DNA of 47,681 nt from the NCBI GenBank assembly GCA_022843855.1, contig JALHMV010000004.1:1-47681 (forward strand). Reading direction: 5' to 3'. Both the position numbers and the translations under genes were made by a program. The notes under the pieces are model-generated. The model saw nothing but the letters and a program-made list of their open reading frames with translations, searched no databases and was not told the DNA's origin. Positions 4,750 to 31,813 of the stretch are shown here, piece by piece. Every line of letters starts with the position of its first letter. Position 1 is the stretch's first letter. The stretch comes from Patescibacteria group bacterium. Its GTDB lineage: Bacteria > Patescibacteriota > UBA1384 > 2-12-FULL-50-11.

Positions 4750-4775
4750 GGCCGCTCACCAGAGCGGGCTTTTTG
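4750..4775 (+). terminator. Rho-independent terminator-like hairpin after rpsJ
   Basis: ccgctc-acca-gagcgg stem-loop followed by cttttt. It sits where rplC would normally follow rpsJ. Confidence 0.55.
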
Positions 4776-4824
4776 TTACCCGAATCTTTCCCGAACAGCT
4801 CGTCTGTAGTAAAATACCGTTAAC

Positions 4825-6838: not shown

Positions 6839-6946
6839 AGGAAATGAGAGGCGTCACATATAACACGCAGTTATACGCTCGTTTCTCTCTCCTGATATCT
6901 AGATTTTCTCATTTTTCTCTACTTAGTCAACCTATTAAGGCTCCAA

Positions 6947-9470: not shown

Positions 9471-9471
9471 A

Positions 9472-12400
9472 ATGACTGAAGAAAAAATCGAAAAAGAGGC
9501 ATTGAAAATTTTAGAACGGCTTGGCTGGCAGATTTTGAGCGGGCCGGAAATCGGACCGGAAGGGTCGAGTGAGCGAAAGTACGACGAAGTAATTTTGACA
9601 CGGCGTCTTAGCGAAGCGATTGCGCAGTTAAACCCACGACTTCCAGCATCCACGATCGACGAAGTCGTCAAAAAAGTTAGTCGTCATGATCATCCGGAAA
9701 TGCTGCTGGACAATCACCAATTTCACCAGCAATTAACCGATGGTGTGAGTGTTGAATATAGGGCATCAAATGCCGAAGTTCGGACTGAGCAGGCGAGGGT
9801 TTTTGATTTTGAGAATCCTGAAAACAATGAATTCGTAGCAGTTAATCAGTTCACGGTTATTAATGGCGATTATCACCGTCGACCGGACATTGTTCTGTTT
9901 GTAAGCGGTTTACCATTGGGAATCATTGAAATTAAAGACCCGACTGATGAAAGAGCAACATTAGAAAGTGCATATAACCAACTGCAGACATACGAAGCGG
10001 AAATTCAGCCGTTATTTCGATTCAACGCACTGGAAATAATTACCGACGGCATTGATGCGGAGGTTGGAACAATCAGTGCAACCTATGAACGCTTTAATGC
10101 TTGGAAAAGCATTGATGGCAAAAAAGATCACTCAGGCGTACCTATGCTGAAAGTATTGCTGCGTGGTGTTTGTGACAAAGCGCGATTTTTAGAAATAGTT
10201 CGTAGCTTTATTGTTTTTGAAAAAGATAAAAAACACGGATTTATTAAAAAGCTGGCTGGCTATCACCAATACTGGGCAGTGCAAAAAGCGCTTGACTCTA
10301 CCGTGAAATCAATTCGACCGGGCAGTGATCATCGCGTGGGAGTTATTTGGCATACGCAAGGATCCGGTAAGTCGCTGTCCATGGTTTTTTATGCAGGCAA
10401 GTTGGTCGCTAATCCAGAACTCAGAAATCCAACGGTAATTGTGGTGACAGATCGAAACGATTTAGATAACCAGTTATTTGATACATTCTCGAACTGTCCT
10501 GAGTTGTTGCGTCAAATGCCGGTACAGGCAGAAAGTCGTGACCATTTACAGGAAATACTCAAAGTTCAGTCGGGCGGAATTATTTTCACAACCAATGCAA
10601 AATTCTTTCCAGAAAACGGCAAAGAATTTCCGCTATTAAGTGATCGAGAAAACATTATTGTGATTGCTGACGAAGCCCATCGCAGTCAGTACAACTTTAT
10701 TGACGGCTTCGCCAAACACATTCGCGATGCCTTGCCCAATGCTAGCTTTATTGGTTTTACGGGTACGCCAATTGAGGCCGATGATCGTTCAACACCAGCA
10801 GTGTTTGGTGACTACTTAGATGTTTATGACATCGAGCAGGCCGTTAAGGACGGGGCGACTGTTCCAATTTATTACGAAAGTCGTCTTGTTGAGCTGGATA
10901 TCAACAAAGATATGCGAGCCCGTATAGATAATGAAGTTGCCGAAGTAATCGGTGAGGAAGAGTTAGATCGTCAAGAAGAACTGAAGGCAAAATGGGCGCA
11001 AGTTGAGGCGGTGGTTGGCAACTCAAAACGAATTGAACGAATTGCTAGCGATATAGTTGAGCACTTTGATAATCGCCTTAGTGCAATCGACGGTAAGGGC
11101 ATGATTGTGACGATGAGTCGACGGATAGCAGTTGATTTATATAGCGCCATTGTCTCCCTGAAACCGGAGTGGGTAGGGGAAAGCGACAAGGAGGGTTTCC
11201 TAAAAGTGATAATGACTGGCTCAGCAACCGATCCGGTTGATTGGCAACAGCATATTCGTTCAAAAGAACGGCGCAGAGAGTTGGCGGATCATTTCAAGGA
11301 GCCAAGCTCACCGTTTAAGCTGGTGATCGTGTGCGATATGTGGTTGACAGGTTTTGATGCGCCAAGTTTACATACTATGTATCTAGATAAGCCGCTAAAA
11401 GGCCATAACTTAATGCAAGCTATTGCGCGAATTAACCGTGTGTATACGGATAAGCCCGGCGGTGTAGTTGTTGACTATCTGGGCGTCGCCGCAGCTTTGC
11501 GTGAAGCATTGCAGGACTACACGGTAAGTGGTGGCAAAGGCCGACCAACGCTCGATCAGCGCGAAGCTGTGGCGGTGATGATGGAAAAAATCGAGCAACT
11601 TCGCGATATGTTTCACGATTTCCCATATCGAAAGTACTTTACGGCTGATACTAAACGGCAGTTGCAGGTCTTGTTGGATGCTCAGGAATACGTCCTCTTG
11701 CAAGAAGAAGGGGAGAAGCGCTTGAAGCAGTATGTTCTAGAGCTTTCGAAGGCATTTGCATTAGCCGTTCCAAATGCGCAGGCACTGGCGACTCGCGAAG
11801 AGGTGGCATTCTTCCAGGCGGTGAGAGCGAGGCTTTCTAAGATTGTAGAAAAGGGGAAGAGCGATCAGGACTTTGGGGCGGCAATCAAACAGATCGTTGA
11901 TAAAGCCATCGCCCCGGCTGGTGTGGTGGATATCTTCGAAGCCGCGGGAATTGATAAACCAGATATTTCTATACTGTCTGACGAATTCCTGGCTGAGATT
12001 AGAGGTATGGAGCGCAAAAATTTAGCGGTTGAGGCATTGCGTAAGCTGCTGGACGGAGAGATCAAGGCAAAATTCTCCAAAAATGCAGTAAAGCTTGGTT
12101 CGTTTGCCGAGATGTTGGAGAAGGCCTTGTTGCGTTATAAAAACAATGCGATTGAAGCCGCGCAAGTCATTGAAGAATTGATAGAAATCGCCAACACTAT
12201 TCGATCTTCGGAAGAAGAAGGTGAAAAACTTGGTCTGTCGCCTGATGAGATTGCATTTTACGATGCATTGGCACAGAACGACAGTGCTCGTGCGGTGATG
12301 GGTGATGACAAATTGCGTGACTTGGCACGATTGTTGGTGAAAAGGGTTCGAGAGAATATTACTGTTGATTGGTCAGTACGAGAAGCAGCTCGCGCTCGTC

Positions 12401-12528
12401 TTAAAGTTATGGTCAAAAGACTACTACGAGAATACGGTTATCCGCCAGATCAAGAAAAAATAGCAACTGAGCTTGTGCTTGTGCAGGCTAGTTTGTTTGG
12501 CGACGAATGGAGTAGTCGTGACCGCTAA
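9472..12528 (+). CDS. hsdR: Type I restriction enzyme, endonuclease/translocase subunit R
   Basis: 1018 aa. N-terminal PD-(D/E)xK nuclease ([21 protein letters not shown]). SF2 motor motifs HTQGSGKS (I), [10 protein letters not shown] (II, DEAH) and FTGTP (III). C-terminal helical domain of the kind seen in HsdR ([10 protein letters not shown]...[10 protein letters not shown]). Confidence 0.93.
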
Positions 12529-12784
12529 ACAATTTCAAAATTTACTTAAGAAAAAGCATCAAGCAATAATAGGGGCGCAGTTTTGTTTTTTGATTGCGTT
12601 TGCGGTAGTGATCGGTAATCAGCACAACGCTTTAACAGCGCGGGATAGAAAAGCGCAACAAGTGCAGCAGAGTCTCCATGATATTAGTCAGTGGCATCGA
12701 GCTGAGTATGGGGCGCGCTACGAAGCGGTCGCTCACTCGCTTCTTTTGTTGGATGCGTACGAACAGGGTGGTGTGGAAAAATGA
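12518..12784 (+). CDS. Small single-pass membrane protein, paralog 1 (shorter copy)
   Basis: About 88 aa from GTG 12518; TTG 12497 is an alternative start. The start lies inside the last codons of hsd[33 protein letters not shown]...[15 protein letters not shown] aligns with the 13208 ORF. Start is uncertain. Confidence 0.5.
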
Positions 12785-12797
12785 CAAGAAGTATCTG

Positions 12798-13211
12798 ATG
12801 TCTAAACCGTTTCGCTCTGATAATGCACAAATCAGAAAGACTACAGAAGAGATCCATGGTCACCTTCATCTTGTTCTGAATGACATTGCCCATACTTGCC
12901 CAGACGGTGGCCTCCAGGAGTGTATAGACGGTCAGTTGATCGAATATATTCAACGCCGGAAGGGCTGGCACCCGATTGGAGAAAACGGTTTTTCCTACAA
13001 AAATGGGATCAAAGTTGTTGTTGATTCTTATCGATTTTCAAACGCTTTCGAAACGGTATTGAATATCGGGAAAGAGCTGCTGCGCGCTGAACTTGAGGGC
13101 TTGATTAAAGAATCGGCCAACAAAGGTGATGAAATACGGCGTGCGCTAAAAGAATTCGAGAGTAAAGATTGGACCGCCGCATTTGTTCGGAGGATTGTAA
13201 GTGAAAAATGA
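12798..13211 (+). CDS. Hypothetical soluble protein (137 aa)
   Basis: ATG 12798 lies 13 nt after the paralog-1 stop, and the stop overlaps the next ATG (ATGA at 13208). No recognisable motifs. The C-terminal half is predicted helical. Confidence 0.5.
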   Translation: MSKPFRSDNAQIRKTTEEIHGHLHLVLNDIAHTCPDGGLQECIDGQLIEYIQRRKGWHPIGENGFSYKNGIKVVVDSYRFSNAFETVLNIGKELLRAELEGLIKESANKGDEIRRALKEFESKDWTAAFVRRIVSEK

Positions 13212-13609
13212 TCAAACGCCTAACCGCTCGACAACTCCGGGTACTTGTCAAACAAAAGCACCGCGCCATTATCGGCGCTCAACTGGGGTTACTCCTTATA
13301 TTTGCTATTTTTATCTCGATGCAATACCGCTCGTTGGAACAACTACAGGGCAAGGTTGCTGACTATCAACAGAGTCTCGGACAGATCAGCACTATGCATC
13401 GAGCGCAATGGCGGGCCAGTACCGATGCGACTTTTCATGCGCTTGGGATGCCGGACGCCTATCTCGAAGGCGTCGAAAAGGTCGATGAGGTCTACGAGGC
13501 GGTGATGGCTGCATCTGAAGAAGCCGTCCGGCAGAAAGATCTTATTATTGAAGAGCTAAAAAAATACGGCATCGTGCCGCCGCCTGAGGAACCGACACCG
13601 GCGACCTAA
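13208..13609 (+). CDS. Small single-pass membrane protein, paralog 2 (longer copy, 133 aa)
   Basis: TARQLRVLVKQKHRAIIGAQLGLLLIFAIFIS...QQSLGQISTMHRAQW...AYLEGVEKV aligns with 12518-12784. It has an extra ~45-aa C-terminal tail ending in a Pro-rich stretch. Confidence 0.6.
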   Translation: MIKRLTARQLRVLVKQKHRAIIGAQLGLLLIFAIFISMQYRSLEQLQGKVADYQQSLGQISTMHRAQWRASTDATFHALGMPDAYLEGVEKVDEVYEAVMAASEEAVRQKDLIIEELKKYGIVPPPEEPTPAT

Positions 13610-13653
13610 TTGATTTCCGTGCATTTTGGGTTGTTGCGACTTATGATGATGCT

Positions 13654-14490
13654 ATGAACCAACTCATTACGAACATTCAATGGAAAAAGGTCGGGATCGG
13701 CGCTTTTTGGGCAGTGACAATTTTAGGCTACTTCTCGCTCGTCGCAGTTGTTATGGTGTATTTTTCACCAATCCTGGACGAGCAACTAACGAATCCAGTT
13801 ACTGGTGAAGCATGTCGAGGTGATGCCACGGTAGTCAACATCCCCATCAGCGGCTCACTGTATACCTATCATTTCGAAGAAGGCGACACCGCCTCGTTGG
13901 ATATTACACAGTTGATCCGTCGGGCAAACGATTCGCCAAATATTAGCGCCATTGTCCTTGAGATTGACTCTCCCGGAGGCGATCCAACCGCTGGCGAAGA
14001 AATCGCGGCGGCGGTTGCTGCATCTGAGAAACCGGTGTATGCCCTTGCGCGGGGTTACGCCACATCAGCTGCTTACTGGGCTGGTCTGACCTCGAAAGCG
14101 TTCTATGCGCATTCAACTTCCTTAGTGGGAAGTATTGGTATAACCGCGTCGTACGTGGATGCTGCCGAAAAGAATAAACGGGATGGCTTAACGTACAACC
14201 AATTGTCGACGGGGAAGTTTAAGGATTTATTTGATCCCAACAAGCCGCTCACTAAAGATGAGCGAACTCATATTGAGACGGAGTTAAACAAGTTTAAGGA
14301 ACTATTTGTTGACCAAGTCGCAACATTGCGCAAATTGCCGCGAGAAGAAGTGGTCGCTTTAGCGGACGGCTCCGCGTTGTTGGGTGGAGACGCTAAGACC
14401 AAGAAGTTGATCGATGAAGTCGGAACGATGACGGACGTTAAGAAGCGAATTGAGGCAGACACCGGTACGCCAGCCCTTCTTTGCTGGTAA
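13654..14490 (+). CDS. sppA: Signal peptide peptidase SppA-like serine protease (peptidase family S49), membrane anchored
   Basis: 278 aa with an N-terminal TM (VGIGAFWAVTILGYFSLVAVVMVYF). S49 motifs: LEIDSPGGDPTAGEEIAAAV, ARGYATSAAYWAGL (nucleophile Ser region), SLVGSIGI. Confidence 0.75.
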   Translation: MNQLITNIQWKKVGIGAFWAVTILGYFSLVAVVMVYFSPILDEQLTNPVTGEACRGDATVVNIPISGSLYTYHFEEGDTASLDITQLIRRANDSPNISAIVLEIDSPGGDPTAGEEIAAAVAASEKPVYALARGYATSAAYWAGLTSKAFYAHSTSLVGSIGITASYVDAAEKNKRDGLTYNQLSTGKFKDLFDPNKPLTKDERTHIETELNKFKELFVDQVATLRKLPREEVVALADGSALLGGDAKTKKLIDEVGTMTDVKKRIEADTGTPALLCW

Positions 14491-14521
14491 GAATTATTAG
14501 TACGAATAGTTTTAGGTAATG

Positions 14522-14550
14522 AAAAGGCCGGGTCCATAGAGGACCCGGCC
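14522..14550. terminator. Strong hairpin between convergent genes; the T-run is on the minus strand
   Basis: Perfect 10-bp stem ggccgggtcc / ggacccggcc with a 5-nt loop. Preceded by aaaa on the plus strand, which reads as tttt after the stem on the minus strand. Confidence 0.6.
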
Positions 14551-14567
14551 GTGGCAGACGGAGCTGC

Positions 14568-15065
14568 CTAGTTTGGGTTTGCCAGGAAGTCGCGAAGCTC
14601 CTGGCGGGCTTTGGTTTCGGCATCGAGCTGGTTGACGGCCTCCTTCGCCGTTGTCAGCGCGGTGTCGATCGCGGTGTCGGGACCGATTGCGTCGTAGGCT
14701 TTCTCAAGCACTTCGACGCTCAGTTCTTGGACGTTGAGCGATTGGCACATCGCTGCCAATGTCAGTCGTTCGTCTTGGAGTTTATCTAGCTCGCTCGCGA
14801 CGATTTCCATTTGGGCAGCGATAGCTTCGAGAGCTGTCGCGTACGAACGGTGAACTTCAGCGACTGCCTCAAGCTCACTTTTTGCTTGATTGGCCAAGTC
14901 TGGATCGGGGTAGGTGGACTTCTGCGTCCAGTCGTCAACGATCAGCTTGGCGTCAGCGGTCAGCTCTTCCAACACACCCGCGGCCAGGTAGGCGTTGCGA
15001 ATATGCTGGATTCGTGGCTGGACCTTGCCGAGCCACTCATGGAAGATCGCATCGCCGTTTGGCAT
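14568..15065 (-). CDS. Hypothetical all-helical protein (165 aa), third gene of a minus-strand operon
   Basis: The ATG shares 1 nt with the upstream gene's TGA (TGATG at 15063-15067). Acidic, coiled-coil-like sequence (ELEAVAEVHRSYATALEAIAAQMEIVASELDKLQDERL). No known motif. Confidence 0.6.
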   Translation of the reverse strand: MPNGDAIFHEWLGKVQPRIQHIRNAYLAAGVLEELTADAKLIVDDWTQKSTYPDPDLANQAKSELEAVAEVHRSYATALEAIAAQMEIVASELDKLQDERLTLAAMCQSLNVQELSVEVLEKAYDAIGPDTAIDTALTTAKEAVNQLDAETKARQELRDFLANPN

Positions 15066-15916
15066 CAGACAACTCCCATTTGCTTGACTTCGGCCGGCGA
15101 CATTTCTTTACCGACGTAGACGACGCAATCGGAGCCTTCTTCGGCCCACATTGCGACCATCCGGCGACCGGTGAAGCTCTTGTCACCACTGACAAAGTCG
15201 GCTCGCATGTCGTAGTACGACACCGGTCGACCGACCGTGGTGAGGAGCGTCGGAACGTCGTCGGCAAACTCGCCCAATTCCGAAAGCACCGAAGTGCATT
15301 CGATCGTGCTTTGGCCGGGATTGCGACCGCCCTCGTTAAGGCCGTAGGCGCCGTTGATCTCCCATTGGCAACCACGAAACTCGCGAATCGCCTGATCGGG
15401 AGTGTCGTCTCCGGCTTTGACGTCGTCGAGAAGCTCCTTGCGCTCTTTGAGGAGCAGGTTGGCTTCGCTACTGGTAATGGGCAGTTCCGTTAAAAGGAAC
15501 CATTTCTTCGGCGTTTTCATGATGAGCATGTCGCCGGAGAGCCAGATGAACTGAGTGATCGCTACGCCTTGCGGCGTATAGATATTAGCTAGCGCCGTGG
15601 TGACGACGGTCCGATTGGCTTTCCAGGATTTGGATCCCGGAGCGTAGTTCGGTACGTCGCTGATGACTTGACCAGCTCGGGCTTCGTCGACGGTGATAGC
15701 TTCAACGATATCATCGCTGGGGTTGGTGTCGGGTTCTTCGCGATGAATCACCCGGCCGTTAGCCCGTAGTTGGGGTTCTTGGGCAGCGACTTTCTTAACG
15801 TATCCGAACCACGGGCCAATATGATTTGGCCAGAGGTCGGTCACGATCCAAAAGACGCCGGCGCCGATGACGATCAGGTACACAATGACCTGAAGAACGT
15901 GAAAGAGTGTCCACAT
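15065..15916 (-). CDS. Hypothetical membrane-anchored protein (283 aa), possibly DUF4178-like
   Basis: N-terminal TM (VLQVIVYLIVIGAGVFWIV). The body has two beta-rich segments (ITQFIWLSGDMLIMKTPKKWFLL; GRRMVAMWAEEGSDCVVYVGKEM) reminiscent of DUF4178. This is a tentative call. Starts 6 nt after the upstream stop. Confidence 0.6.
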   Translation of the reverse strand: MWTLFHVLQVIVYLIVIGAGVFWIVTDLWPNHIGPWFGYVKKVAAQEPQLRANGRVIHREEPDTNPSDDIVEAITVDEARAGQVISDVPNYAPGSKSWKANRTVVTTALANIYTPQGVAITQFIWLSGDMLIMKTPKKWFLLTELPITSSEANLLLKERKELLDDVKAGDDTPDQAIREFRGCQWEINGAYGLNEGGRNPGQSTIECTSVLSELGEFADDVPTLLTTVGRPVSYYDMRADFVSGDKSFTGRRMVAMWAEEGSDCVVYVGKEMSPAEVKQMGVV

Positions 15917-15922
15917 AGTTGA

Positions 15923-17347
15923 TTAGTCTCCTCCGCCGAACGAACCAGATCCCGGTCCGCCGAATGATCCGCCCATGCCTCCGCCTGAGCTTCCACCACC
16001 GTAACCGCTCCCGAAGCCGCCTCCGCTTGAGCCGCCATACCCGCCGTAGCTGCCGCCAGAAGAACTGGAGCCGCTATCGTAGGATGTTGTCGGTGGGGGT
16101 GGGGTGTAGGTGTCAACCTCATCGTAGGCTTGGTTAGCCAGACTAGTTGCCGTTTGATAGTGAGTGACCGCCAAGACGGGGTCACTGGCTTCATATTGCC
16201 GGGCCGAATCGCGATGCCGACGAGCACTTGCCAGAGTTGCCTCGGCGGTGTCTTGGTCGTTTCGATCTTCCCAGTCGTCAATATGCTCAGCAGCGCGGCT
16301 GATGGCCGAGTTGGCATCGATACGCTCTGATCGCATGACGGCGACAGCATTACGGACGCGAACGTCGAAGTTGTGCACCGACTTGATGTAGTTCTGGATC
16401 TTGGTGAGCTCGCCTCGAACGCTGCGCAAAAGCACATCAGCCCTGGCAAACTCTTGGGTATCCATACTATTGAGTCGGTTGATCTCGCCCAATGTTTGTT
16501 CGAGATTCGCCAATGACCGCTGATGCGTTGTAAGCCCGGCAGTGAAGCCTTTGCGGTTGTAGGCGCTATAGCGTTCAATCCGCACGGCAGCGTTGTACGC
16601 ATCGGTAAACGAATTACGAAGCGTGCCGAGCGTGTTGCCGGCGTTGCCTGAGAGCTCATTGACGGTCTGACGCAGCTTGGGAGCGCGATCAGCCAGTTCT
16701 AACGATTGTGTGGCGACGCTTTTGGCCTCTTCGCCAATGGCGAAGATCCGGACGTAATCTGGACGATTGTCCCGAGGGTCAATCGCGTTCATGAGCCGGG
16801 CCACTTTCGCTTCGGTTTCGTTGAGCTGGCCAATTACCATGCGAGCGTCACCGAAGTGACGATCGAAGTAGCCGTTGGCAATATGCCCGGCGATCCGGTT
16901 GGTCGTTGCCTGGCTGTAGGCGTTGATTTGGCTGACGACGTTGGGGTAGGCCTCGAGGGCCGTGTCCAAGTCGGTTAGCCCAGCAGTCAAAGCCTTCATA
17001 TCGCGCTGAACTTCAGCGAGGATGTAGCTGGCCTGACCGGTTGCCACTGCCACGGGTTTTGGGTTGGGACCGTCGGCGGCCTTCAGCTTGCTTGTCGCTT
17101 GTTCGAGCGCGGTGATGAGGTCGTTGACCGACAAGTTGTCTGTGTACTTCGGATGCGTTTGTTTCGCAGCCGTGACACGGGCAAGAATGTCGGTCCGTAA
17201 TTCGTTGGTTGTCTTGGTGATAGCTGCCTGAACCGTATCGCGTTGGCGATAGATCTTTCCCGCTTCGTAGTCCTTACCGAACCCGAAGACGAGAGAGAGG
17301 GCAAACAGTCCCAAGATCCATTGCGGAATCGTTGAGCGATTGTTCAT
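15923..17347 (-). CDS. Hypothetical N-terminally anchored long helical protein with a Gly/Ser-rich C-terminal tail (474 aa)
   Basis: Preferred start is ATG 17347 (MNNRSTIPQWILGLFALSLVFGF = TM), preceded by aggaaac. About 400 aa of helical/coiled-coil sequence, then PPPPTTSYDSGSSSSGGSYGGYGGSSGGGFGSGYGGGSSGGGMGGSFGGPGSGSFGGGD. Confidence 0.62.
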   Translation of the reverse strand: MNNRSTIPQWILGLFALSLVFGFGKDYEAGKIYRQRDTVQAAITKTTNELRTDILARVTAAKQTHPKYTDNLSVNDLITALEQATSKLKAADGPNPKPVAVATGQASYILAEVQRDMKALTAGLTDLDTALEAYPNVVSQINAYSQATTNRIAGHIANGYFDRHFGDARMVIGQLNETEAKVARLMNAIDPRDNRPDYVRIFAIGEEAKSVATQSLELADRAPKLRQTVNELSGNAGNTLGTLRNSFTDAYNAAVRIERYSAYNRKGFTAGLTTHQRSLANLEQTLGEINRLNSMDTQEFARADVLLRSVRGELTKIQNYIKSVHNFDVRVRNAVAVMRSERIDANSAISRAAEHIDDWEDRNDQDTAEATLASARRHRDSARQYEASDPVLAVTHYQTATSLANQAYDEVDTYTPPPPTTSYDSGSSSSGGSYGGYGGSSGGGFGSGYGGGSSGGGMGGSFGGPGSGSFGGGD

Positions 17348-17471
17348 AAACTGTTTCCTGTAAGTAAACGTGCGGTGACGGCGCAGTCGCCGCACAGTGC
17401 AGGCGGAATAATAGCAGTTTTCAGGTTAGGAGTCGATGGGTTTGAGGCATATTTTTACTGACCAGTAGAGT

Positions 17472-17504
17472 AAGAGAAAGGCCGAGTCCATATTGAACCC
17501 GGCC
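17472..17504 (-). terminator. Terminator-like hairpin downstream of metK
   Basis: Minus strand reads ggccgggt-tcaatatgg-actcggcc (one mismatch) followed by tttctctt. Confidence 0.45.
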
Positions 17505-17536
17505 ATCTTTTTGTCGACGCTGTCGTTAGGCGCCGG

Positions 17537-18595
17537 TTACATTTTCCTAGTCGTGACCTTCTCCCAAGGGAATGTTTTGCTCGAGAAGTGGCCGTTAATC
17601 GCTGTTTGGCGGTAGATTGGCTGACGTAGGTCTAGGAATTTGATAATCCCTGCTGGTGAGAGGTCGAAATTCTTAACCACCCAATCTCGAGCGGGATAGT
17701 CGGTATCGGTCCAAGCGTCCACCATCACGGGATCGTTATGGCCAATGGCGTAGGCGCACGAGACGAGACATTCGTTGCACCACCCTTGTGAAACAATATT
17801 TTTTGCCAAATAGCGGGCCATGTACGCTGCTGAGCGATCAACTTTGGTTGGGTCCTTTCCACTAAAACAACCGCCACCCTGCGGAATGAGGCCGCCGTAG
17901 GTGTCGACCATGATCTTGCGACCAGTCAGTCCGGTATCTGCTTCAAACCCTCCTTGTAAGAAAATTCCGGTTGGGTTGATGTGGCAATCCTCGAATCGCA
18001 GGTTGGCAACAACCGGTTGTATGACGTGCTCGAATATTTGCTGGCGTAGTTCGTCGGTAGTGATTGTTTCTTCGTGTTGAGTAGAGACGACAACGGTCCA
18101 AACCGAATTGTCGACGGTGGTGACTTGGGCTTTGCCGTCGGGGCGAAGCCAGCTAAATTTTGGATTATTTTTGCGCAATTCCGTCAGCCGATCAGTTAAC
18201 TTGTGAGCCAGAACCACTGGTAGCGGTAAAAGCTGCGGTGTCTCTTTGGTGGCGTAGCCATACATAATTCCTTGGTCGCCTGCGCCGCCCGTGTCGACGC
18301 CCAGAGCGATGTCTGAAGATTGAGTAACGATCTTAACGGTAATATCTAGCGCGTCAGCGTAGCCTATCGATCGATAGACTTGCTTGGCAACATTGGCAGC
18401 GTCAACGGTTGCCTTCGAAGTTACCTCGCCAACAATAAACAAGACACCGTGACCCCCTACGGCTTCGACCGCAACGCGGCTATTTGGGTCGTCTGTTAGA
18501 TATGCATCAAGAATTGCATCGGAAATTTGGTCGCAAATCTTGTCTGGGTGTCCTTCGGTCACTGACTCAGCCGTTCTCCACTGGCTTATAATCAT
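17537..18595 (-). CDS. metK: S-adenosylmethionine synthetase
   Basis: 352 aa with ESVTEGHPDKICDQISD, GAGDQGIMYGYA and GGGCFSGKDPTKVDRSAAY motifs. SD aaggagg lies 5 nt upstream. Confidence 0.95.
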   Translation of the reverse strand: MIISQWRTAESVTEGHPDKICDQISDAILDAYLTDDPNSRVAVEAVGGHGVLFIVGEVTSKATVDAANVAKQVYRSIGYADALDITVKIVTQSSDIALGVDTGGAGDQGIMYGYATKETPQLLPLPVVLAHKLTDRLTELRKNNPKFSWLRPDGKAQVTTVDNSVWTVVVSTQHEETITTDELRQQIFEHVIQPVVANLRFEDCHINPTGIFLQGGFEADTGLTGRKIMVDTYGGLIPQGGGCFSGKDPTKVDRSAAYMARYLAKNIVSQGWCNECLVSCAYAIGHNDPVMVDAWTDTDYPARDWVVKNFDLSPAGIIKFLDLRQPIYRQTAINGHFSSKTFPWEKVTTRKM

Positions 18596-18615
18596 TCTGC
18601 CTCCTTAACATAAAA

Positions 18616-18755
18616 CGAAAAACCTCTCCGAAATGAGAGGTAATTGCTTATATTCATCACTCCGTGTTAACGGTTGGTTGTAGCACCTTACCGATAGTAG
18701 GTTGCTGGCGGTTTTATCGGGCCAAGTCCCTGTCCGCACTCTTGATGGTAGATTG
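18616..18755 (-). promoter_or_regulatory. SAM-I (S-box) riboswitch with intrinsic terminator in the metK leader
   Basis: Minus strand reads ccaucaagagugcggacagggacuuggcccgauaaaaccgccagcaacc...gguaaggugcuacaacc...ccguuaacacggagugaugaa. This matches the S-box core (AUCAAGAG.GCGGA.AGGGAC.GGCCCGAU.A..CC.GCAACC...GGUGCUA). It is followed by ccucuc-auuucg-gagagg-uuuuu (18618-18640) and then the metK SD. Confidence 0.8.
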
Positions 18756-18903
18756 TTAACGTTACCACTATGCCGAGGTGCAACGCCCGCAGTCAAGTCT
18801 AAGTGCAAAGTGGAATACTCGCATAGATCAAATCAAACGATCCTTGCAGGGTGCCACAATTGAATTACAATCAAGGTAATAAAATAACGGAATAAGGAGA
18901 ACT

Positions 18904-19683
18904 ATGGAACCTGAGAAACGACTGGCCGGCCTGCGACGATTTAACTGGGTTATGGCGGTTTTGCATGCGGCGCAAGGCATTGCCATTATTGCATTGAGTG
19001 TCGACTTTAAGTTACCGATTACGGCGAATTACCTAACGTTTGATGTCGCAACTCAGTCGTTACTGCCGGCTTCGAGCGAACTATTCAGGCTGTCCCTACC
19101 TTGGTTGGTGGCAGTATTCTTCTTCCTCTCGAGCTTTGCGCACCTGAGTATTGCGAGTTACTACAACAAGACCTACGACGACAATCTCTTGAAGGGCATT
19201 AATAAGGCTCGGTGGTGGGAGTATTCTTTCTCGGCTTCAATTATGATGATCGCAATTTCGCTGCTGGTTGGTATCTACGACTTTGGTAGCCTACTCATGA
19301 TCTTTTCGCTCGTTGCAACGATGAACTTGCTCGGTTTGGTAATGGAAGTGCAAAATCAGGGTCGCCTTGAGCGCGGCGAGAAGCCAAACTGGTTTAGCTT
19401 CAACTTGGGTTCGTTCGCTGGCCTAATTCCGTGGATCGTGGTCGGGTTAGCGTTTTACTGGAGCGCAAAATTTAGCGGCGCGACGCCGCCAACGTTCGTC
19501 TATTGGATCTATGTCTCGATCTTCGTTTTCTTCAACTGTTTCGCGTTGAACATGATTTTGCAGTACAAGAAGGTCGGAAAGTGGGCAGACTATCTCTACG
19601 GCGAGAAAGCCTACATCGTACTGAGCTTGGTCGCCAAATCGCTGCTCGCGTGGCAGGTATTTGCCGGTACACTTCGTCCGTAA
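18904..19683 (+). CDS. Heliorhodopsin (7-TM retinal protein, inverted topology family)
   Basis: 259 aa, collinear with the reference heliorhodopsin 48C12 as I recall it. FNWVMAVLHAAQ (His), SSFAHLSIASYY (His), RWWEYSFSASIMM (counterion Glu). C-terminal GEKAYIVLSLVAKSLLAWQVFAGTLRP against GERAYIVLSLVAKSALAWQIFSGTLIPA (Schiff-base Lys, here Lys245). SD aaggag upstream. Confidence 0.9.
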   Translation: MEPEKRLAGLRRFNWVMAVLHAAQGIAIIALSVDFKLPITANYLTFDVATQSLLPASSELFRLSLPWLVAVFFFLSSFAHLSIASYYNKTYDDNLLKGINKARWWEYSFSASIMMIAISLLVGIYDFGSLLMIFSLVATMNLLGLVMEVQNQGRLERGEKPNWFSFNLGSFAGLIPWIVVGLAFYWSAKFSGATPPTFVYWIYVSIFVFFNCFALNMILQYKKVGKWADYLYGEKAYIVLSLVAKSLLAWQVFAGTLRP

Positions 19684-19686
19684 CAT

Positions 19687-20247
19687 ATGAATCGCTGCAT
19701 GATCGTGCATGGGTGGGCGGGGAATCCTTCCCATGGCTGGAAACCGTGGTTGAAAGCCGAACTGGAAGCAGCCGGGTGGCAGGTCGAAGCGCCTTCGATG
19801 CCTTCACCGAATACTCCTAAACTTAATGAGTGGCTCGAGGTGCTCGCAGAAATTGTCGGTACACCAGACGAAAACACATACTTTGTTGGTCACAGCTTGG
19901 GCTGCTACACATTTCTGAAATACATCGAACGCCTGCCGGAAAATCAAAGGATCGGTGGGGGAGTGATGGTCGCTGGTTTTGCCGGCTACCTCAAGCACAA
20001 AATCCCAGTTTTAGAAAAATACTATGAAGCCGGTTTGGATTGGGACAAGATCCGTCATCACAACGGCAAATACGCGGCCATTTATTCTGACCGTGATGAT
20101 TACGTCCGGGTAGAATCGGCCTTTGAATTTGAAAAACATCTCGGTGCCACACTGATCAAAAACAACGACTGGGAACACTTCTCCGGCGACGAAGGTATCA
20201 CCCAACTCCCCGACGTCCTCTCCGCATTACTCCACATCTCAAAGTAG
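19687..20247 (+). CDS. YdeN/RBBP9-type alpha/beta serine hydrolase
   Basis: 186 aa. MIVHGWAGNPSHGWKPWL N-terminus and GHSLG nucleophile elbow, with the size typical of the Ser_hydrolase family. Starts 3 nt after the heliorhodopsin stop. Confidence 0.72.
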   Translation: MNRCMIVHGWAGNPSHGWKPWLKAELEAAGWQVEAPSMPSPNTPKLNEWLEVLAEIVGTPDENTYFVGHSLGCYTFLKYIERLPENQRIGGGVMVAGFAGYLKHKIPVLEKYYEAGLDWDKIRHHNGKYAAIYSDRDDYVRVESAFEFEKHLGATLIKNNDWEHFSGDEGITQLPDVLSALLHISK

Positions 20248-20293
20248 CACCACTCAACTTTAGGTGCCCTCTAGTAACTGACATATGCTATGC

Positions 20294-20318
20294 AAAACCC
20301 GCCGACAAGGCGGGTTTT
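20294..20318. terminator. Bidirectional rho-independent terminator
   Basis: aaaacccgcc-gacaa-ggcgggtttt. A/T runs on both sides, between convergent genes. Confidence 0.65.
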
Positions 20319-20343
20319 GGGTTCGGTGAGGCGTCGAGCCTCA

Positions 20344-20568
20344 TTAGGCGGTGAGTGGCAGAGGGAGTCCGCCGCCATCGTCGTCAGACCATTCGATCGG
20401 CAGCATCAGTCTCTGCCCGAAACCGCAGACAACAGCCCACTGACCAGTCTCCGTGGTGATTAGGTACCACCAAACAAACCGACCGTGAAAACCGTTGAGC
20501 CGAATAATCCTATCGATTGACCAAACTTTCCAGTCCGCTTCTCGGGCGAGTGTGTGCAGGCGTTTCAT
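20344..20568 (-). CDS. Hypothetical protein (74 aa)
   Basis: ORF only, Trp-rich, with no motif and a weak RBS. It is bracketed by the terminator and a divergent intergenic region. Confidence 0.35.
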   Translation of the reverse strand: MKRLHTLAREADWKVWSIDRIIRLNGFHGRFVWWYLITTETGQWAVVCGFGQRLMLPIEWSDDDGGGLPLPLTA

Positions 20569-20689
20569 GGTGTGGCTCTCGACGATAACGGTCGCTCCAG
20601 TCTATCAGGCCACGATGACGCCGGCAAGGCCGCCCTCGGGAAACGACGGCAGTTGTGTTCGGTAAAACGGGGTATACAATGAAATAGAG

Positions 20690-22021
20690 ATGGAGGACCT
20701 GCGTCAGTACATCGAGAGCGCTCGCGCGAGCGGGATGACCGACGAACAGATCAAAGCCGAGTTGCGTCGCGTCGGCTGGACCGAAACGCACGTCAGCCAA
20801 GCCTTCTTTGCCGATCCGACAGCGCCGAAACCGCTGCTCGATTTGGGCGACGTAACGAGGACAGACAACTCATCCCCGCCGAAAGTAGATCCCGTACCGC
20901 AGCGTGAGAGCATCAACTCTCCGACCACTGCTCCGGTCGCGGCCGAGCCTACACCCCCGCTGAAAGAAGAGACGACGCCAACCGGATTTAACTGGGGGGC
21001 GTTTTGGCTGACGTGGATCTGGGGCATCGGTCATCGAATCTGGCTCTCTCTTCTCCTCATTCCGTTGGCGATTGCGACTGCTATTTTCTCGCTCTTCTAC
21101 TCGTTTTCGAGCGCTCTCGAAAGTTGGACGGCAACCTCCGGTCAATCGTCGGCAGATGCTTGGCTAATCTCCGGCGCCACCGTCGTCGTTAATCTGCTTA
21201 TTTCGTTGTGCTTTGGACGAAAGGGCACGGCTTGGGCCTGGCACCGTCGCGGTGACCGAGCGCTCGATCAGTTTCAGCGTCGCGAAAAAAGATGGGCGGT
21301 CATCGGTTGGGTCTTCGGCGCTTTGGTTGTCCTTGGGTGGGCGTTGTTTGCTGTTTCACTGATCGCAGATCGGGGCGCTTCAAACCAATTCGAATGCACG
21401 CCAGGTGTCCAAATAGAAATCGGGGGCATCAATCGCTGCGCCGACGAGTCGGGGGAGCAGACGGACACTGTCTCGACAACCAGCTTTAGCGGAACGGGTG
21501 TTCGTTTTGATCACAACGCCGCATGGCAGGTCAAACAGCTGAGCGCGCTGCTCGAAACGGGAGGCGGTGCCGGCGACCTGACCCTATTCTTCACGGCCGC
21601 GGCGATGAGCGAAACTGAGCAGCGTATCGCTGCTGTCAAGAACGATCCGAACGCCGATTTTGGTGCGGTCTTTGGACTTCTTTTTACTGTGCCGCAAGCC
21701 GCAGAGATGTCGGTTGTTACCTTGGAGGCAACGACAGCTCAAGCAGCGGCCGAAGCAGCGTCGCAGTCTACCTGTCAGGGCACGGTTTTTGAATCAGATA
21801 CCACCGCTCCGATCGACTCAAGCCGAATCGAAGCGATCACGTTCGCGAACCGACCGGCGTATGCCGTGGCCAGTCAGCCGAGTTGTCAGTTTGTTTTTTA
21901 CCAAGTCTTTGTTCAGCAAACCAACCAATCAACCGTTGCCCTAACCTTTAATCGAGCGGCTAACTTACAGGCACTCTCGGCTGATCAAAAGGTCGTCGAA
22001 CGATCGGTCCAGATTGACTAG
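20690..22021 (+). CDS. Hypothetical multi-pass membrane protein with extracytoplasmic C-terminal domain
   Basis: 443 aa. Small N-terminal helical domain (MTDEQIKAELRRVGWTETHVSQAF), a Pro/Thr linker, a TM block beginning FNWGAFWLTWIWGIGHRIW (DUF2628-like motif), then a ~210-aa Cys-containing C-terminal domain. Confidence 0.7.
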   Translation: MEDLRQYIESARASGMTDEQIKAELRRVGWTETHVSQAFFADPTAPKPLLDLGDVTRTDNSSPPKVDPVPQRESINSPTTAPVAAEPTPPLKEETTPTGFNWGAFWLTWIWGIGHRIWLSLLLIPLAIATAIFSLFYSFSSALESWTATSGQSSADAWLISGATVVVNLLISLCFGRKGTAWAWHRRGDRALDQFQRREKRWAVIGWVFGALVVLGWALFAVSLIADRGASNQFECTPGVQIEIGGINRCADESGEQTDTVSTTSFSGTGVRFDHNAAWQVKQLSALLETGGGAGDLTLFFTAAAMSETEQRIAAVKNDPNADFGAVFGLLFTVPQAAEMSVVTLEATTAQAAAEAASQSTCQGTVFESDTTAPIDSSRIEAITFANRPAYAVASQPSCQFVFYQVFVQQTNQSTVALTFNRAANLQALSADQKVVERSVQID

Positions 22022-22388
22022 ACGTCCGTCAGACTGCTGCGTGGCTGAGAGCGTCGAGGCCGCCCAAGCGCTCGGGACCAAGACAATCTGGTTCAATACC
22101 GGCACGTTCGGCCGTAAATACACCCTTGATCGCGATAGTCAGGTTACTGTGAGCGCCTCAAAACGAAAGGATCTCCTCAACGGTATCGACACAGAAGTGT
22201 TGCGCGCCAAAGCGAAAGGTTACGAGGTCACGATCAACCTGTTCGCCGAGGATAAGAGCGCCACGTCCGAAGCAACTGACTGGTCGTATCTCTCATCCGG
22301 TGAGGAAATACAGATTCTGAGCGGGTTTATCAATCGCTTGAAGCGAGAGAATATCGCTTTTAGCTTCTTCGATATCGTTCGCCAGTGA
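22014..22388 (+). CDS. Hypothetical protein; the N-terminus resembles a degenerate HAD-hydrolase C-terminal motif (possible gene remnant)
   Basis: Only TTG 22014 or GTG 22038 are available as starts. PSDCCVAESVEAAQALGTKTIWFNTG resembles the HAD motif IV region, but the catalytic GD..D is replaced by AE..E. Confidence 0.35.
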   Translation: MTRRPSDCCVAESVEAAQALGTKTIWFNTGTFGRKYTLDRDSQVTVSASKRKDLLNGIDTEVLRAKAKGYEVTINLFAEDKSATSEATDWSYLSSGEEIQILSGFINRLKRENIAFSFFDIVRQ

Positions 22389-22538
22389 GGTCACTCTCGG
22401 CAGGACAGGCGCCCAAGACAGAGCAACGGGGTAGTCTGCGTGCAGGCGACATAGCCGGTGGTGCTCAAGTTGGCTGATTGTCTCTCGGTTTGATCTCGGG
22501 TATCCTGTTGTCTGGCCCGCGGAGGGGGCAAACGCACA

Positions 22539-22895
22539 TTGGATAACGAAGAAATCACCCGAAGAGACCTTCTGCGTGTAGGTTTAGCTCTAGTTGGTAG
22601 CCTCACAATCCTCAGCTGCGGCGGAGGAGGTGGAGGCGGCCTCGGCTCGACAACGCGCTCGGTTCTTGACCGAACGATCGCCCAATACGGTTCCGATAGT
22701 GTGGTGGCCGATCCGGAGAGTCCTGACTACCTTGTCCAGGTTGGCACGCTCGCGCCGACCAACGACAGCCAGGGGCTTATTTTCCAGATCAATGGTCAGT
22801 TTCCGCCGGAGACGAGTGGTGACGTTAGCGCCGCACGGACTTTTATGGTTCGGGATACGGACACGATTACCTGGCTACTGGTGACACGTCGTTGA
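22539..22895 (+). CDS. Predicted Tat-signal lipoprotein (118 aa)
   Basis: TTG start 10 nt after ggaggggg. Twin-arginine motif ITRRDLLRVG, hydrophobic core, lipobox LSC followed by a G7 linker. Confidence 0.6.
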   Translation: MDNEEITRRDLLRVGLALVGSLTILSCGGGGGGGLGSTTRSVLDRTIAQYGSDSVVADPESPDYLVQVGTLAPTNDSQGLIFQINGQFPPETSGDVSAARTFMVRDTDTITWLLVTRR

Positions 22896-22966
22896 CCGCA
22901 CTTATTGAGGGAGGATCAGGGCCACGGCTCTTGTCCTCCCTTTCACTTTTTAATACAAACAAACAA

Positions 22967-24388
22967 ATGCTAAAACGCTTTCTCTACCTTCTTGCTGTCA
23001 TCGCTGTTGGTTTTGTGCCGTTTTTGGTTACGCACGCCCAGACAGCTCGTTTTGCTTTGGTTGCAATAAGCCCGACTGGCCAAAAAACAGTTTGTGTTGA
23101 ACGCGCCAGCCAGTCGGTTCTAAACGCGCTCGGCGAAAACGGTTTTACGCCAAAACAGGACGATACCGGTTTTATTTACTCGCTCATCGGTCACGACGGA
23201 CCGGTTTCAACTGATCCCGCAGCACAAGCAGCGTTTTGGGGATTTTGGTGGGCGAGTGGCGATAATCTCGGTTTTAGTGATCGCGGTCCGGCCGAGGTTG
23301 TCCCGCAAACTAACAATCGTTACGTCTTCTCTTTCGGCAACGGCACATTGCCATCCAGCATCCCGTCATTCCAAAGCGTTTGCCCGGATCCGGTTCAACC
23401 AGCCGCCGCGCCGGTAAACAATAGTCAGTCAACATCAACGCCCGCGCCCGTTGCTAATCCGAGCGGCCCAACGCTTCAAACATCGATTAACTATTTACGC
23501 ACTAACTTTGCAGCCCAAGCGCTGGCCAACCGAGACTGGGGCGCGATGGCGCTTGGCGCTAATGGAGTAAGCGTTGCAACCGGTACGACCGCTGACCCGA
23601 GTGTCCTAAGCTTGGCGCGCAATGCGCTCGGTAAGGCAGCCCAGGGACAAGAACGAACAAGTTTGGTTGACCAGATTAAAGCGTCGTACGCTGGCGGTCA
23701 GCTCGGGGAAAGTACGCTCATAAGCGACGATATTTTTGGAGTTTTGGCAATTCAGGCAACTGACCCGGCTTGGCTGAGGACACGCACGGATATTTTTCAG
23801 ACGATTCTCAGTTCGCAACGGAGTGACGGTTCGTTTGGCTACAGTGAAAGCGGCGACGGTGATGCCGATATGACAGCCGCTGCAGTCTGGGCGCTGGTCT
23901 ATGCGCCAACATACCCAACCGATGTCATCGCCCGTGCCTTTAACTACCTCAACGCTGCGCGCGCCAGTGACGGCGGCTACGGTTACCGGCCCGGGGCCGC
24001 TGCTAGTGTTGCTACCTCCAGTTGGGTTCTGCTCGCGTATCGAGCAACCGACACGGCTTTTCCGGCACTGGAGACCTACCTCCATAACCAGCGACAAGCA
24101 GACGGCTCGTATCTTCAGTCAGGTCAACCGAATTACCTGAATACGGCCTACGCTGTGTTGGCGTTGTCTGGCCAGCGGATGCCTATTGTCCCAGCGGCTA
24201 CCCCAAACCCGACACCAGCTCCGACTCCATCCCCAACACCAAAACCGACTACTTCGGTATACGGTAACGGCGCTTCGGCGATCGAGCGCACATACACAGA
24301 GACGAACGACTTTGGCTGCTCTGCTAGCGCAGCCGCCACCGCAACGGGTACTGCCGCTTCCGCAACAGCCATCGCCGTCTGTTGGTGA
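22967..24388 (+). CDS. Secreted protein: N-terminal DUF4430-like domain plus prenyltransferase/terpene-cyclase-like alpha-alpha repeats
   Basis: 473 aa from ATG 22967, with a signal peptide (MLKRFLYLLAVIAVGFVPFLVTHAQT). DUF4430-like segment (VCVERASQSVLNALGENGF...FWGFWWASGDN). Repeats QRSDGSFGYSE / RASDGGYGYRP / RQADGSYLQ. PTPAPTPSPTPKPT linker and a Cys-containing tail. Family calls are tentative. Confidence 0.65.
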   Translation: MLKRFLYLLAVIAVGFVPFLVTHAQTARFALVAISPTGQKTVCVERASQSVLNALGENGFTPKQDDTGFIYSLIGHDGPVSTDPAAQAAFWGFWWASGDNLGFSDRGPAEVVPQTNNRYVFSFGNGTLPSSIPSFQSVCPDPVQPAAAPVNNSQSTSTPAPVANPSGPTLQTSINYLRTNFAAQALANRDWGAMALGANGVSVATGTTADPSVLSLARNALGKAAQGQERTSLVDQIKASYAGGQLGESTLISDDIFGVLAIQATDPAWLRTRTDIFQTILSSQRSDGSFGYSESGDGDADMTAAAVWALVYAPTYPTDVIARAFNYLNAARASDGGYGYRPGAAASVATSSWVLLAYRATDTAFPALETYLHNQRQADGSYLQSGQPNYLNTAYAVLALSGQRMPIVPAATPNPTPAPTPSPTPKPTTSVYGNGASAIERTYTETNDFGCSASAAATATGTAASATAIAVCW

Positions 24389-24463
24389 TGCGGCCGACGA
24401 ACCGCTATCAACAACAACGAATCGCTTAGTGACGTTTTCTGGCTAAATCGGTCGGTTTCTTTC

Positions 24464-24492
24464 TTGACTGGCAATCAAGAAACTGTCAAAAT
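24464..24492 (+). promoter_or_regulatory. Candidate promoter for the rplC-led ribosomal operon
   Basis: TTGACT (24464-24469), a 17-nt spacer ending in tgt, then CAAAAT (24487-24492), about 48 nt upstream of the rplC ATG. Pattern match only. Confidence 0.4.
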
Positions 24493-24539
24493 AGCCCTAA
24501 TGTGTGCTCGGTTAATAGCCGTACAACACGGATATCGAA

Positions 24540-25124
24540 ATGACAAAAGCAATCTTGGGATGGAAACTTGGTATGACACAAGTGTGGGACGACAAAGGTC
24601 GTCTGGTTCCTGCTACTGTTATTTTCGCGCCGAGCAATACTGTTCTCACCAAGACTGAAGACCGCGTTCTCGTCGGCATCGCTACTCGCGGCAAGACCAA
24701 CAAAGCCCAGGCTCATCTCGCTAAGAAAATCGATTCGAAGCGTGGCATCGCCCTCAAAGAACTAACCGGCGTTTCTCCGGATATGGAAACGCTTTCGGTT
24801 AGCCAGTTTGCTGTTGGCGATAAGCTCAGTATCAGCGGCGTAACCAAAGGTAAAGGCTTTGCCGGTACGATCAAGCGTCATAATTTCCACCGTGGACCGA
24901 TGACTCACGGCTCAGACAATATTCGCCAGCCGGGTTCGATCGGTGCGCAGCGTCCGCAGCGCGTGCCAAAAGGCCAAAAAATGGCTGGTCACATGGGCGC
25001 AGTCAACCTGACCGTTCGTGGTAACAAGGTTTTGGCCGTCAACGCTGAAGAGAATCTCCTGATCGTCTCCGGCGCAGTCCCTGGTCCCGCCAAAGGACGT
25101 ATTTTAGTACGGAGCAACTCATGA
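24540..25124 (+). CDS. rplC: 50S ribosomal protein L3
   Basis: 194 aa with ILGWKLGMTQVWD and KGKGFAGTIKRHNFHRGPMTHGS. Confidence 0.97.
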   Translation: MTKAILGWKLGMTQVWDDKGRLVPATVIFAPSNTVLTKTEDRVLVGIATRGKTNKAQAHLAKKIDSKRGIALKELTGVSPDMETLSVSQFAVGDKLSISGVTKGKGFAGTIKRHNFHRGPMTHGSDNIRQPGSIGAQRPQRVPKGQKMAGHMGAVNLTVRGNKVLAVNAEENLLIVSGAVPGPAKGRILVRSNS

Positions 25125-31478: not shown

Positions 31479-31811
31479 ATGAATCAAACACGCCGATCTA
31501 AAATTCAAACTAAACTGCGGAAAACTGTTATCGGTACAGCCGAACGACCCCGTTTGTCGGTATATCGTAGTTTAAACCAGGTTTACGCTCAGCTCATCGA
31601 TGACGCTACGGGTAAGACGCTCGCTTCGGCTCACTCCCTAAAATCAACGGGGAGTCTGTCAGTAAAGGCGACCGAGGTTGGTACGGCGATCGCAGCAGCG
31701 GCCAAGGAGAAGAAGATTAAAAGCGCTGTCTACGACCGCGCCGGTTTTGCCTATAGCGGCGCCGTGAAAGCACTGTGCGAGGCAGCTCGTGCGGCAGGAT
31801 TAACTATTTAA
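31479..31811 (+). CDS. rplR: 50S ribosomal protein L18
   Basis: 110 aa with RPRLSVYRSLNQVYAQLIDD and VYDRAGFAYSGAVKALCEAARAAGL. Confidence 0.96.
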   Translation: MNQTRRSKIQTKLRKTVIGTAERPRLSVYRSLNQVYAQLIDDATGKTLASAHSLKSTGSLSVKATEVGTAIAAAAKEKKIKSAVYDRAGFAYSGAVKALCEAARAAGLTI

Positions 31812-31813
31812 AT

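Follow-up and report, generated by a model that had tools for sequence, protein, structure and literature searches.

The stretch of DNA analyzed here, which we call the window, comprises 47,681 nucleotides (nt) of contig JALHMV010000004.1 from a Patescibacteria group bacterium (assembly GCA_022843855.1), and our subject is a gene at positions 18904..19683 of its forward (+) strand that encodes a heliorhodopsin (HeR). The reading frame runs from an ATG to a TAA stop and specifies a protein of 259 amino acids (aa). A Shine-Dalgarno-like AAGGAG, read directly from the sequence at 18894..18899 (+), lies 4 nt before the start codon, and stop codons are abundant on the strand opposite the open reading frame (ORF). 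The next gene, at 19687..20247 (+), encodes a 186-aa serine hydrolase of the YdeN/RBBP9 family (Pfam PF06821, E=1.1e-23).

The HeR protein matches the Pfam family PF18761 (Heliorhodopsin) along the entire profile, from position 1 to 242 of 242, with an E-value of 1.2e-92 and 310.1 bits against a gathering score of 26.7, and it scores 316.9 bits with the NCBIfam equivalog NF038020, "heliorhodopsin HeR," for which the cut-off is 100 bits. Its best sequence matches in the PDB are all solved heliorhodopsins, six sequences with E-values from 1e-70 to 8e-37 that include TaHeR (6is6 and 7clj, both near 1e-70, with 6is6 at 1.3e-70), 48C12 (6su3, 6uh3, and 9ljj, all near 5e-50), and the eukaryotic Cv06 (9vfc, 8e-37). 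Given full-length scores of this size with PF18761, NF038020, and 6is6, a chance match to the heliorhodopsins is ruled out. Type-1 microbial rhodopsins carry a DxxxK motif in transmembrane helix 7 (TM7) and have an N-out topology. We rejected this identity for the window protein, which had no match to the type-1 model PF01036 (Bac_rhodopsin) at E<=0.01, carries SxxxK instead, aligns poorly with type-1 structures, and is predicted to be N-in. We also rejected the possibility of a pseudogene, since the ORF is intact and the ratio of nonsynonymous to synonymous substitution rates (dN/dS), calculated against the nearest relative (locus L001), is 0.043, a value that points to strong purifying selection. 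Judged by its sequence, then, the gene is a genuine and intact heliorhodopsin.

The Schiff-base lysine of the protein is K245, within SLVAKSLLAWQ (the SxxxK motif of TM7), the counter-ion glutamate is E106, within the TM3 motif WWEYSFS, and two histidines, H21 and H80, lie in VLHAAQ and FAHLS. When the protein was aligned to PDB chains with HMMER, H21 fell opposite H23 of both 48C12 and TaHeR, S76 opposite S76 and S78, respectively, H80 opposite H80 and H82, E106 opposite E107 and E108, S241 opposite S237 and S234, and K245 opposite K241 and K238. The hydrogen-bond network around the Schiff base of 48C12 (PMC9726877) consists of Asn16, His23, Gln26, Ser76, His80, Tyr92, Arg104, Glu107, Tyr108, Ser111, Glu149, Glu230, Ser237, Lys241, and Trp246, and the window HeR is identical at 15/15 of these positions, which correspond in the same order to N14, H21, Q24, S76, H80, Y91, R103, E106, Y107, S110, E148, E234, S241, K245, and W250. 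Across 55 homologues, reaching down to ~61% identity, every network residue, including S241 and K245 of the SxxxK motif, is invariant except S76, for which conservation is at least 90%.

We built an AlphaFold2 model of the protein on this 55-sequence alignment, obtaining a mean predicted local distance difference test score (pLDDT) of 92 and a predicted template-modeling score (pTM) of 0.87. The model contains seven helices (residues 3-31, 65-84, 101-121, 127-150, 164-191, 197-221, and 230-257) as well as the two-stranded AB-loop sheet typical of HeRs (36-64, with strands at 36-47 and 52-64). In Foldseek comparisons it superimposed on TaHeR 6is6 with template-modeling (TM) scores of 0.93/0.96 and a root-mean-square deviation of 1.6 A and on 48C12 (6su3) with a TM-score of ~0.90, whereas type-1 rhodopsin structures gave TM-scores of only 0.5-0.65, with E>=1.4e-3. 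The loops on the side of the N terminus, BC, DE, and FG hold 14 lysines and arginines versus 4 on the side of AB, CD, EF, and the C terminus, a distribution that, by the positive-inside rule, predicts an inverted topology with the N terminus inside and the C terminus outside. Inverted N-in topology is a defining trait of heliorhodopsins. The computations thus establish both the HeR identity of this protein and the integrity of its photochemical core.

Much of this had been anticipated in a preliminary description of the same DNA, which was made from the letters alone. The ORF that it placed at this locus is exactly as claimed in start, length, and stop, and the collinearity that it saw with 48C12 holds over residues 5-259. 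The two histidines, the glutamate, and Lys245 that it quoted with their motifs are all present and could be mapped to 48C12 and TaHeR. It had proposed a search with family hidden Markov models and a phylogeny with characterized HeRs as checks, and we ran both: the two family models matched in full above their cut-offs, and a neighbor-joining tree, built without viral HeR sequences, placed the protein within a HeR clade dominated by Saccharibacteria. Every test at the level of sequence supports the earlier identification.

TaHeR, from Thermoplasmatales archaeon SG8-52-1 (PDB 6is6, 7clj, and 7u55), is the best solved relative of the window HeR, with 122/251 residues identical, and its H23, S78, H82, E108, S234, and K238 are all identical to the residues aligned with them. 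However, TaHeR is archaeal while the window HeR belongs to a bacterium of the Candidate Phyla Radiation (CPR), ~52% of positions differ between the two, and the window protein has four more residues in the DE loop and five more in the EF loop. The founding member 48C12 (PDB 6su3, 6su4, and 6uh3) shares SLVAK as well as the complete network with the window HeR, although its overall identity is only ~43% (111/258) and its N138, W146, Q213, and Y214 are replaced by V137, L145, M217, and I218.

More than 7,000 HeR homologues were found in our sequence collection at E<=1e-20, the nearest of them 93% identical to the window protein, and several are already named "heliorhodopsin HeR" by the NCBI pipeline, in metagenome-assembled genomes (MAGs) of Patescibacteria, Woykebacteria, and Caldiserica. 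A look-up of the exact window sequence of the HeR among public assemblies gave no record. For comparison of hosts we used GTDB contigs, with one genome per species, and took the 80 best HeR loci. The labels Candidatus Saccharibacteria, Saccharimonas, or Saccharimonadales are borne by 47 of these 80, and a further ~14 carry Patescibacteria, Berkelbacteria, or Dojkabacteria labels; HeRs of Chloroflexi, Actinobacteria, and Thermoplasmata come next, at ~50-55% identity. The window HeR lies deep within a Saccharibacteria-dominated clade of the tree, with TaHeR in a neighboring group and 48C12 far away. The flanking EF-Tu, S10, and L3 proteins are likewise 85-98% identical to those at the loci of the closest HeRs. 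In addition, the window has no rpmD gene (L30) between rpsE (31775..32314) and an L15-like ORF: in the region 31775-32730, rpsE is succeeded directly by a 138-aa ORF, which has no Pfam match and is presumably L15, and then comes secY. Loss of L30 is a trait usually noted for CPR bacteria. Because the relatives of both the HeR and its flanking genes are Saccharibacteria MAGs, and because L30 is missing, we assign the host to the Saccharibacteria (class Saccharimonadia) within the CPR, which makes more precise the "CPR-like genome" that had been suggested earlier. The window contains LysM and D-Ala-D-Ala carboxypeptidase genes, is free of sortase genes, and holds no envelope markers. HeRs are reported to be restricted to monoderms and absent from diderms, and according to the literature Saccharibacteria are monoderm.

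Some of the labels in the comparison set stand out. Three loci called "uncultured Gammaproteobacteria" (L048, L068, and L082) have HeRs that group with Patescibacteria HeRs in the tree, and L007, called "Berkelbacteria" (HeR at 74% identity), groups inside the Saccharibacteria subclade of the window; the likely explanation is wrong binning or labelling, with lateral transfer as the alternative. We also noticed a separate Saccharibacteria HeR subclade with a conserved neighborhood (L037, L038, L040, L042, L044-L046, L070, L077, and L085), in which MsrA (PF01625) and a sortase lie upstream of the HeR gene and a HAD phosphatase, RsmE, a PD-(D/E)XK protein, and seryl-tRNA synthetase lie downstream. 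Its MsrA linkage agrees with the oxidative-stress hypothesis for HeRs put forward by Bulzu et al. 2021 (PMC8612252), who described two-component and oxidative-stress neighborhoods of HeRs, and it does not apply to the locus in the window.

The window HeR gene resides in a lineage-variable block of 19.9 kb (4681..24539), recognized from Pfam matches of its flanking and internal genes, that splits rpsJ (4342..4680) from rplC (24540..25124). This junction of the S10 operon is normally contiguous. The window starts with rpsG, fusA, tuf, and rpsJ, and from rplC onward it holds the rest of the S10-spc-alpha cluster. The block opens with a type I restriction-modification (R-M) system (hsdM, 4825..6315; hsdS, 6947..8104; hsdR, 9472..12528), in which an NYN-domain gene (6251..6838) and a gene for an OLD-family ATPase-TOPRIM nuclease (8097..9470; best PADLOC match Old, also AriA/GajA-like) are embedded, followed by two genes for hypothetical proteins and one for an S49 peptidase. 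Next come three genes for hypothetical proteins on the reverse (-) strand, metK (-), the HeR gene, the PF06821 hydrolase gene, and four more genes for hypothetical proteins. The R-M system (4825-12528) was probably acquired horizontally, since its guanine-plus-cytosine (GC) content is 0.40-0.46 versus 0.50-0.55 in core genes. The HeR gene, on the other hand, is no recent foreign arrival, given that its GC content of 0.496 matches that of the core genes (0.49-0.55) and that its dN/dS against L001 is so low.

The cargo at this position differs between close relatives. In L001 (HeR 93% identical) the rpsJ-rplC junction is split by 16 kb, with genes for an N6_N4 methyltransferase, AAA and ResIII proteins, a cupin, the HeR, the hydrolase, and glycosyltransferases; in L005 (HeR 75%) it is split by >15 kb, with Pif1, the HeR, and another type I R-M system. 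In L002/L006 (HeR 87%) the HeR gene lies 400 nt upstream of rplC. L088/L089 have no HeR gene and contain only the hydrolase, MazG, and MsrA, in a split of 3.3 kb in L088, and a search of the L088 island for remains of a HeR gene gave none. The relatives with a split junction (L001, L005, and L088) have EF-Tu proteins 92-98% identical to that of the window. With cargo this different among close relatives, the HeR gene belongs to the variable content of an island that has been remodelled repeatedly, and the "accessory block" of the preliminary description is an apt term for it. The rpsJ-rplC block behaves like an integration or defence-island hotspot within a ribosomal operon; at the borders of the 19.9-kb block we found no tRNA, integrase gene, or flanking direct repeats, and short repeats there were at chance level.

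Divergent from the HeR gene lies metK (352 aa; region 17537-18800, -), which is preceded by a SAM-I riboswitch (18651..18751, -; 46.8 bits versus a gathering score of 44.4) with its terminator hairpin and T-run (18641..18622, -) and by a promoter-like site (18796..18767, -). A metK gene is also found near the HeR gene in L086 and directly upstream of it in L035. On the + strand upstream of the window HeR gene, no site met sigma-70 criteria, and the count for the region equalled the shuffled expectation. The lineage-specific hypothetical proteins without a Pfam match are encoded in two runs (14568-17395, -, and 20690-24388) and are probably cell-surface proteins. One of them, of 490 aa, has a C-terminal tail rich in Gly and Ser; another, of 443 aa, combines four predicted transmembrane segments with a linker rich in Pro and Thr; and a third, of 498 aa, is signal-anchored and gives a sub-threshold match to the alpha-alpha toroid of prenyltransferase/terpenoid-cyclase-like proteins. 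We considered whether the last of these might be a carotenoid enzyme and rejected the idea, as the protein is signal-anchored and probably extracellular.

A heliorhodopsin needs retinal, and the absence of crt and blh genes from the window that had been remarked on earlier holds for every ORF scanned: no match to any family of carotenoid or retinal synthesis was obtained. Nor do the hypothetical proteins without Pfam matches resemble Blh, since none of them is a multi-transmembrane, His-rich protein of ~280 aa. Among Saccharibacteria genomes with type-1 rhodopsin genes, Jaffe et al. 2022 (PMC9296517) detected no blh, and they suggested that the rhodopsins of Saccharibacteria use retinal supplied by the host; the same article describes TaHeR as binding external retinal rapidly via an opening in the apoprotein. 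Since no retinal pathway is encoded in the window and the published rhodopsin-bearing genomes have no blh, the chromophore would come from the host or the environment, most likely as exogenous retinal entering through a lateral fenestration. The residues of the TaHeR fenestration, Y164, C168, G171, F203, A207, and N204, are represented in the window HeR by F166, S170, G173, F210, A214, and N211, respectively. These conform to the fenestration motif of a 2025 preprint (bioRxiv 10.1101/2025.11.27.691015), which calls for two aromatic residues facing each other, a pair of small residues, and a glycine. Retinal scavenging is therefore plausible, in the sense that the protein's sequence is consistent with it.

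How could such a protein serve its host? Heliorhodopsin function is still debated and only partly understood. At a probability of roughly 80%, we favor the interpretation that the window HeR, one of the prokaryotic, TaHeR-like HeRs, works as a photoreceptor of the TaHeR/48C12 type that binds retinal but does not pump ions, obtains its chromophore from outside, and modulates one or more partners. Light would isomerize all-trans-retinal bound at K245, and the Schiff-base proton would then move to E106 and a water cluster at H80/H21 while staying inside the protein. A long-lived intermediate would alter the cytoplasmic and extracellular surfaces, and through these altered surfaces one or more partner proteins would be modulated; the retinal itself, of host or environmental origin, would enter by way of the lateral fenestration. 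Since the proton would remain within the protein and the long-lived state would change its surfaces, a HeR working in this way would be a light sensor or regulator rather than an ion pump. We infer this role, like the exogenous origin of the retinal, from characterized relatives and the literature. Regulatory precedents exist in which a HeR acts with glutamine synthetase, a photolyase, or an ABC transporter (PMC11109279) or lies among two-component and oxidative-stress genes (PMC8612252). The three systems with an identified partner, AbHeR with glutamine synthetase, TfHeR with photolyase, and OcHeR with the OmrDE ABC transporter, belong to the same family as the window HeR and share its presumed mode of action, namely a light-dependent protein-protein interaction with the product of a neighboring gene.

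Several observations weigh against this interpretation. None of the partner genes of AbHeR, TfHeR, and OcHeR lies near the window HeR gene, where the only adjacent candidate is the small serine hydrolase, and adjoining the HeR gene we found no histidine kinase, response regulator, glutamine synthetase, photolyase, or ABC exporter. The neighborhood is also not conserved across the 80 nearest HeR loci. With no signalling gene beside it and no conserved surroundings, the step from sensor to partner is drawn by analogy only. Moreover, only some close relatives have the gene, and at least one (L088) lacks it, so it is dispensable for the lineage. Lastly, the window represents 47.7 kb of a genome, and a retinal pathway may lie elsewhere in it.

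If the photoreceptor has a partner encoded nearby, the hydrolase is the only local candidate, and a weak one. The HeR and hydrolase genes could form a two-gene module in which photoactivated HeR binds and modulates the cytoplasmic hydrolase, much as AbHeR and TfHeR are presumed to act on glutamine synthetase and photolyase. The two genes are co-oriented and separated by 3 nt, with no terminator-like site in the gap, and the same 3-nt junction occurs in L001; the hydrolase is probably co-transcribed with the HeR. The enzyme has an alpha/beta fold (E=3.1e-30 against YdeN, PDB 1uxo), an intact GHSLG nucleophile motif, and no signal peptide or transmembrane segment. In 5/7 distinct HeR loci of the closest subclade (the window, L001, L086, L091, and L092), the hydrolase lies no more than 1.3 kb from the HeR gene. 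Cho et al. 2024 (PMC11109279) also name, as a class, "alpha/beta hydrolase" among the ten groups of partners that recur in HeR operons. Taken with the loose linkage that we see, this makes the pairing a legitimate lead, but a weak one.

Other observations argue against a tight functional module. Those operon groups are defined by adjacency on one strand and a predicted shared promoter. The adjacency is found in the window and L001, but the arrangement is disrupted in L086 (which has a 53-aa ORF and 376 nt of spacing between the genes), L091 (an opposite-strand DUF2200 gene lies between), and L092 (the hydrolase is upstream, with fabH on the - strand between). L005 and L006 have the HeR without the hydrolase, whereas L088/L089 have the hydrolase without the HeR, as do L087 and L090 as far as their contigs reach. 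We therefore rejected an obligate operon, since order, spacing, and presence all vary. We also searched the surroundings of 85 related loci, both by tblastn with 12 proteins of the window and by clustering the +/-4 neighbors de novo. No neighbor of the window HeR recurs beyond the closest subclade, and no homologue of the hydrolase lies near any of the other ~75 HeR loci. The hydrolase family, in turn, is common among CPR lineages whether or not they have a HeR. The co-location may merely reflect shared residence in a variable island, and we regard the two-gene module as unlikely.

A different possibility, which is not exclusive of the photoreceptor interpretation, is that the protein is a light-harvesting HeR with two antennas, binding an exogenous xanthophyll at the fenestration in addition to retinal. 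The 2025 preprint proposed such xanthophyll use for most HeRs, and the signature of its carotenoid site is present in the window protein (the F166/F210 aromatic pair, the small residues S170/A214, G173, and N211). Saccharibacteria, moreover, have a single membrane and are attached to hosts that may make carotenoids (PMC9296517). However, the proposal is based on docking and sequence statistics, not on a carotenoid-bound HeR or on energy transfer; it leaves the use of the absorbed energy unstated, and the same fenestration is accounted for by retinal uptake. We consider a second antenna in the window HeR rather improbable.

Less probable still is proton transport by the window HeR, either light-gated or light-driven, as in the viral V2HeR3. 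One HeR subfamily transports protons (PMC9448325), and the internal E106/H80/H21 relay could in principle conduct them. Yet the closest characterized relatives of the window protein are TaHeR (48%) and 48C12 (41-43%) rather than viral HeRs, and the transporting subfamily 2 lacks the fenestration motif, according to the preprint, whereas the window HeR has it. It is equally hard to credit an opsin without a working chromophore supply, be it a drifting accessory gene or a light-independent membrane protein, for although the gene sits in a variable island, is missing from at least one close relative, and has no retinal pathway in view, its dN/dS is 0.04, K245 and the hydrogen-bond network are conserved across the 55 homologues, its ribosome-binding site is strong, and HeRs are widespread across Saccharibacteria species (PMC9166423).

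The photoreceptor that we favor is a canonical and routine member of its family, of an already known kind, and it opens no new question in itself, because CPR HeRs have been published, their lysine motif has been catalogued, and NCBI names them automatically. Chiriac et al. 2022 (Microbiome, PMC9166423) detected 98 HeRs in a survey of 1,326 CPR genomes, with Saccharimonadia contributing 80 and SLVAK, SLIAK, and SFVAK being the commonest lysine motifs, and discussed a role in oxidative-stress sensing; Patescibacteria were also included in the HeR neighborhood analyses of Bulzu et al. 2021 (PMC8612252) and Chazan et al. (2021 preprint). The novelty implied by the preliminary description does not stand, since both the Saccharimonadia HeRs (PMC9166423) and the idea of host-derived retinal (PMC9296517) had already been published. 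The window HeR shares its host class, SLVAK, and inverted topology with the CPR HeRs of Chiriac et al. (PMC9166423), whereas only a narrow sublineage has the gene between rpsJ and rplC with a YdeN-type hydrolase beside it. What is modestly new is therefore positional: an island that splits the S10 ribosomal operon, and a loose link to a YdeN-type hydrolase.

In the literature that we searched there was no report of a Saccharibacteria HeR having been expressed and characterized. The same preliminary description had called the gene a good handle on light sensing in an episymbiont, and we find it a reasonable experimental handle, given that an episymbiont genome of ~1 Mb offers a short list of possible partners. 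It is improbable, though worth stating, that the HeR and hydrolase travelling together in the rpsJ-rplC island constitute a light-regulated enzyme pair in this sublineage. In one form of such a pair, the HeR may serve as the switch of an esterase or peptidase at its cytoplasmic face; in another, the hydrolase may help to release or process a host-derived chromophore precursor. If either were true, it would be the first defined output of a CPR heliorhodopsin and would add a new class of HeR partner.

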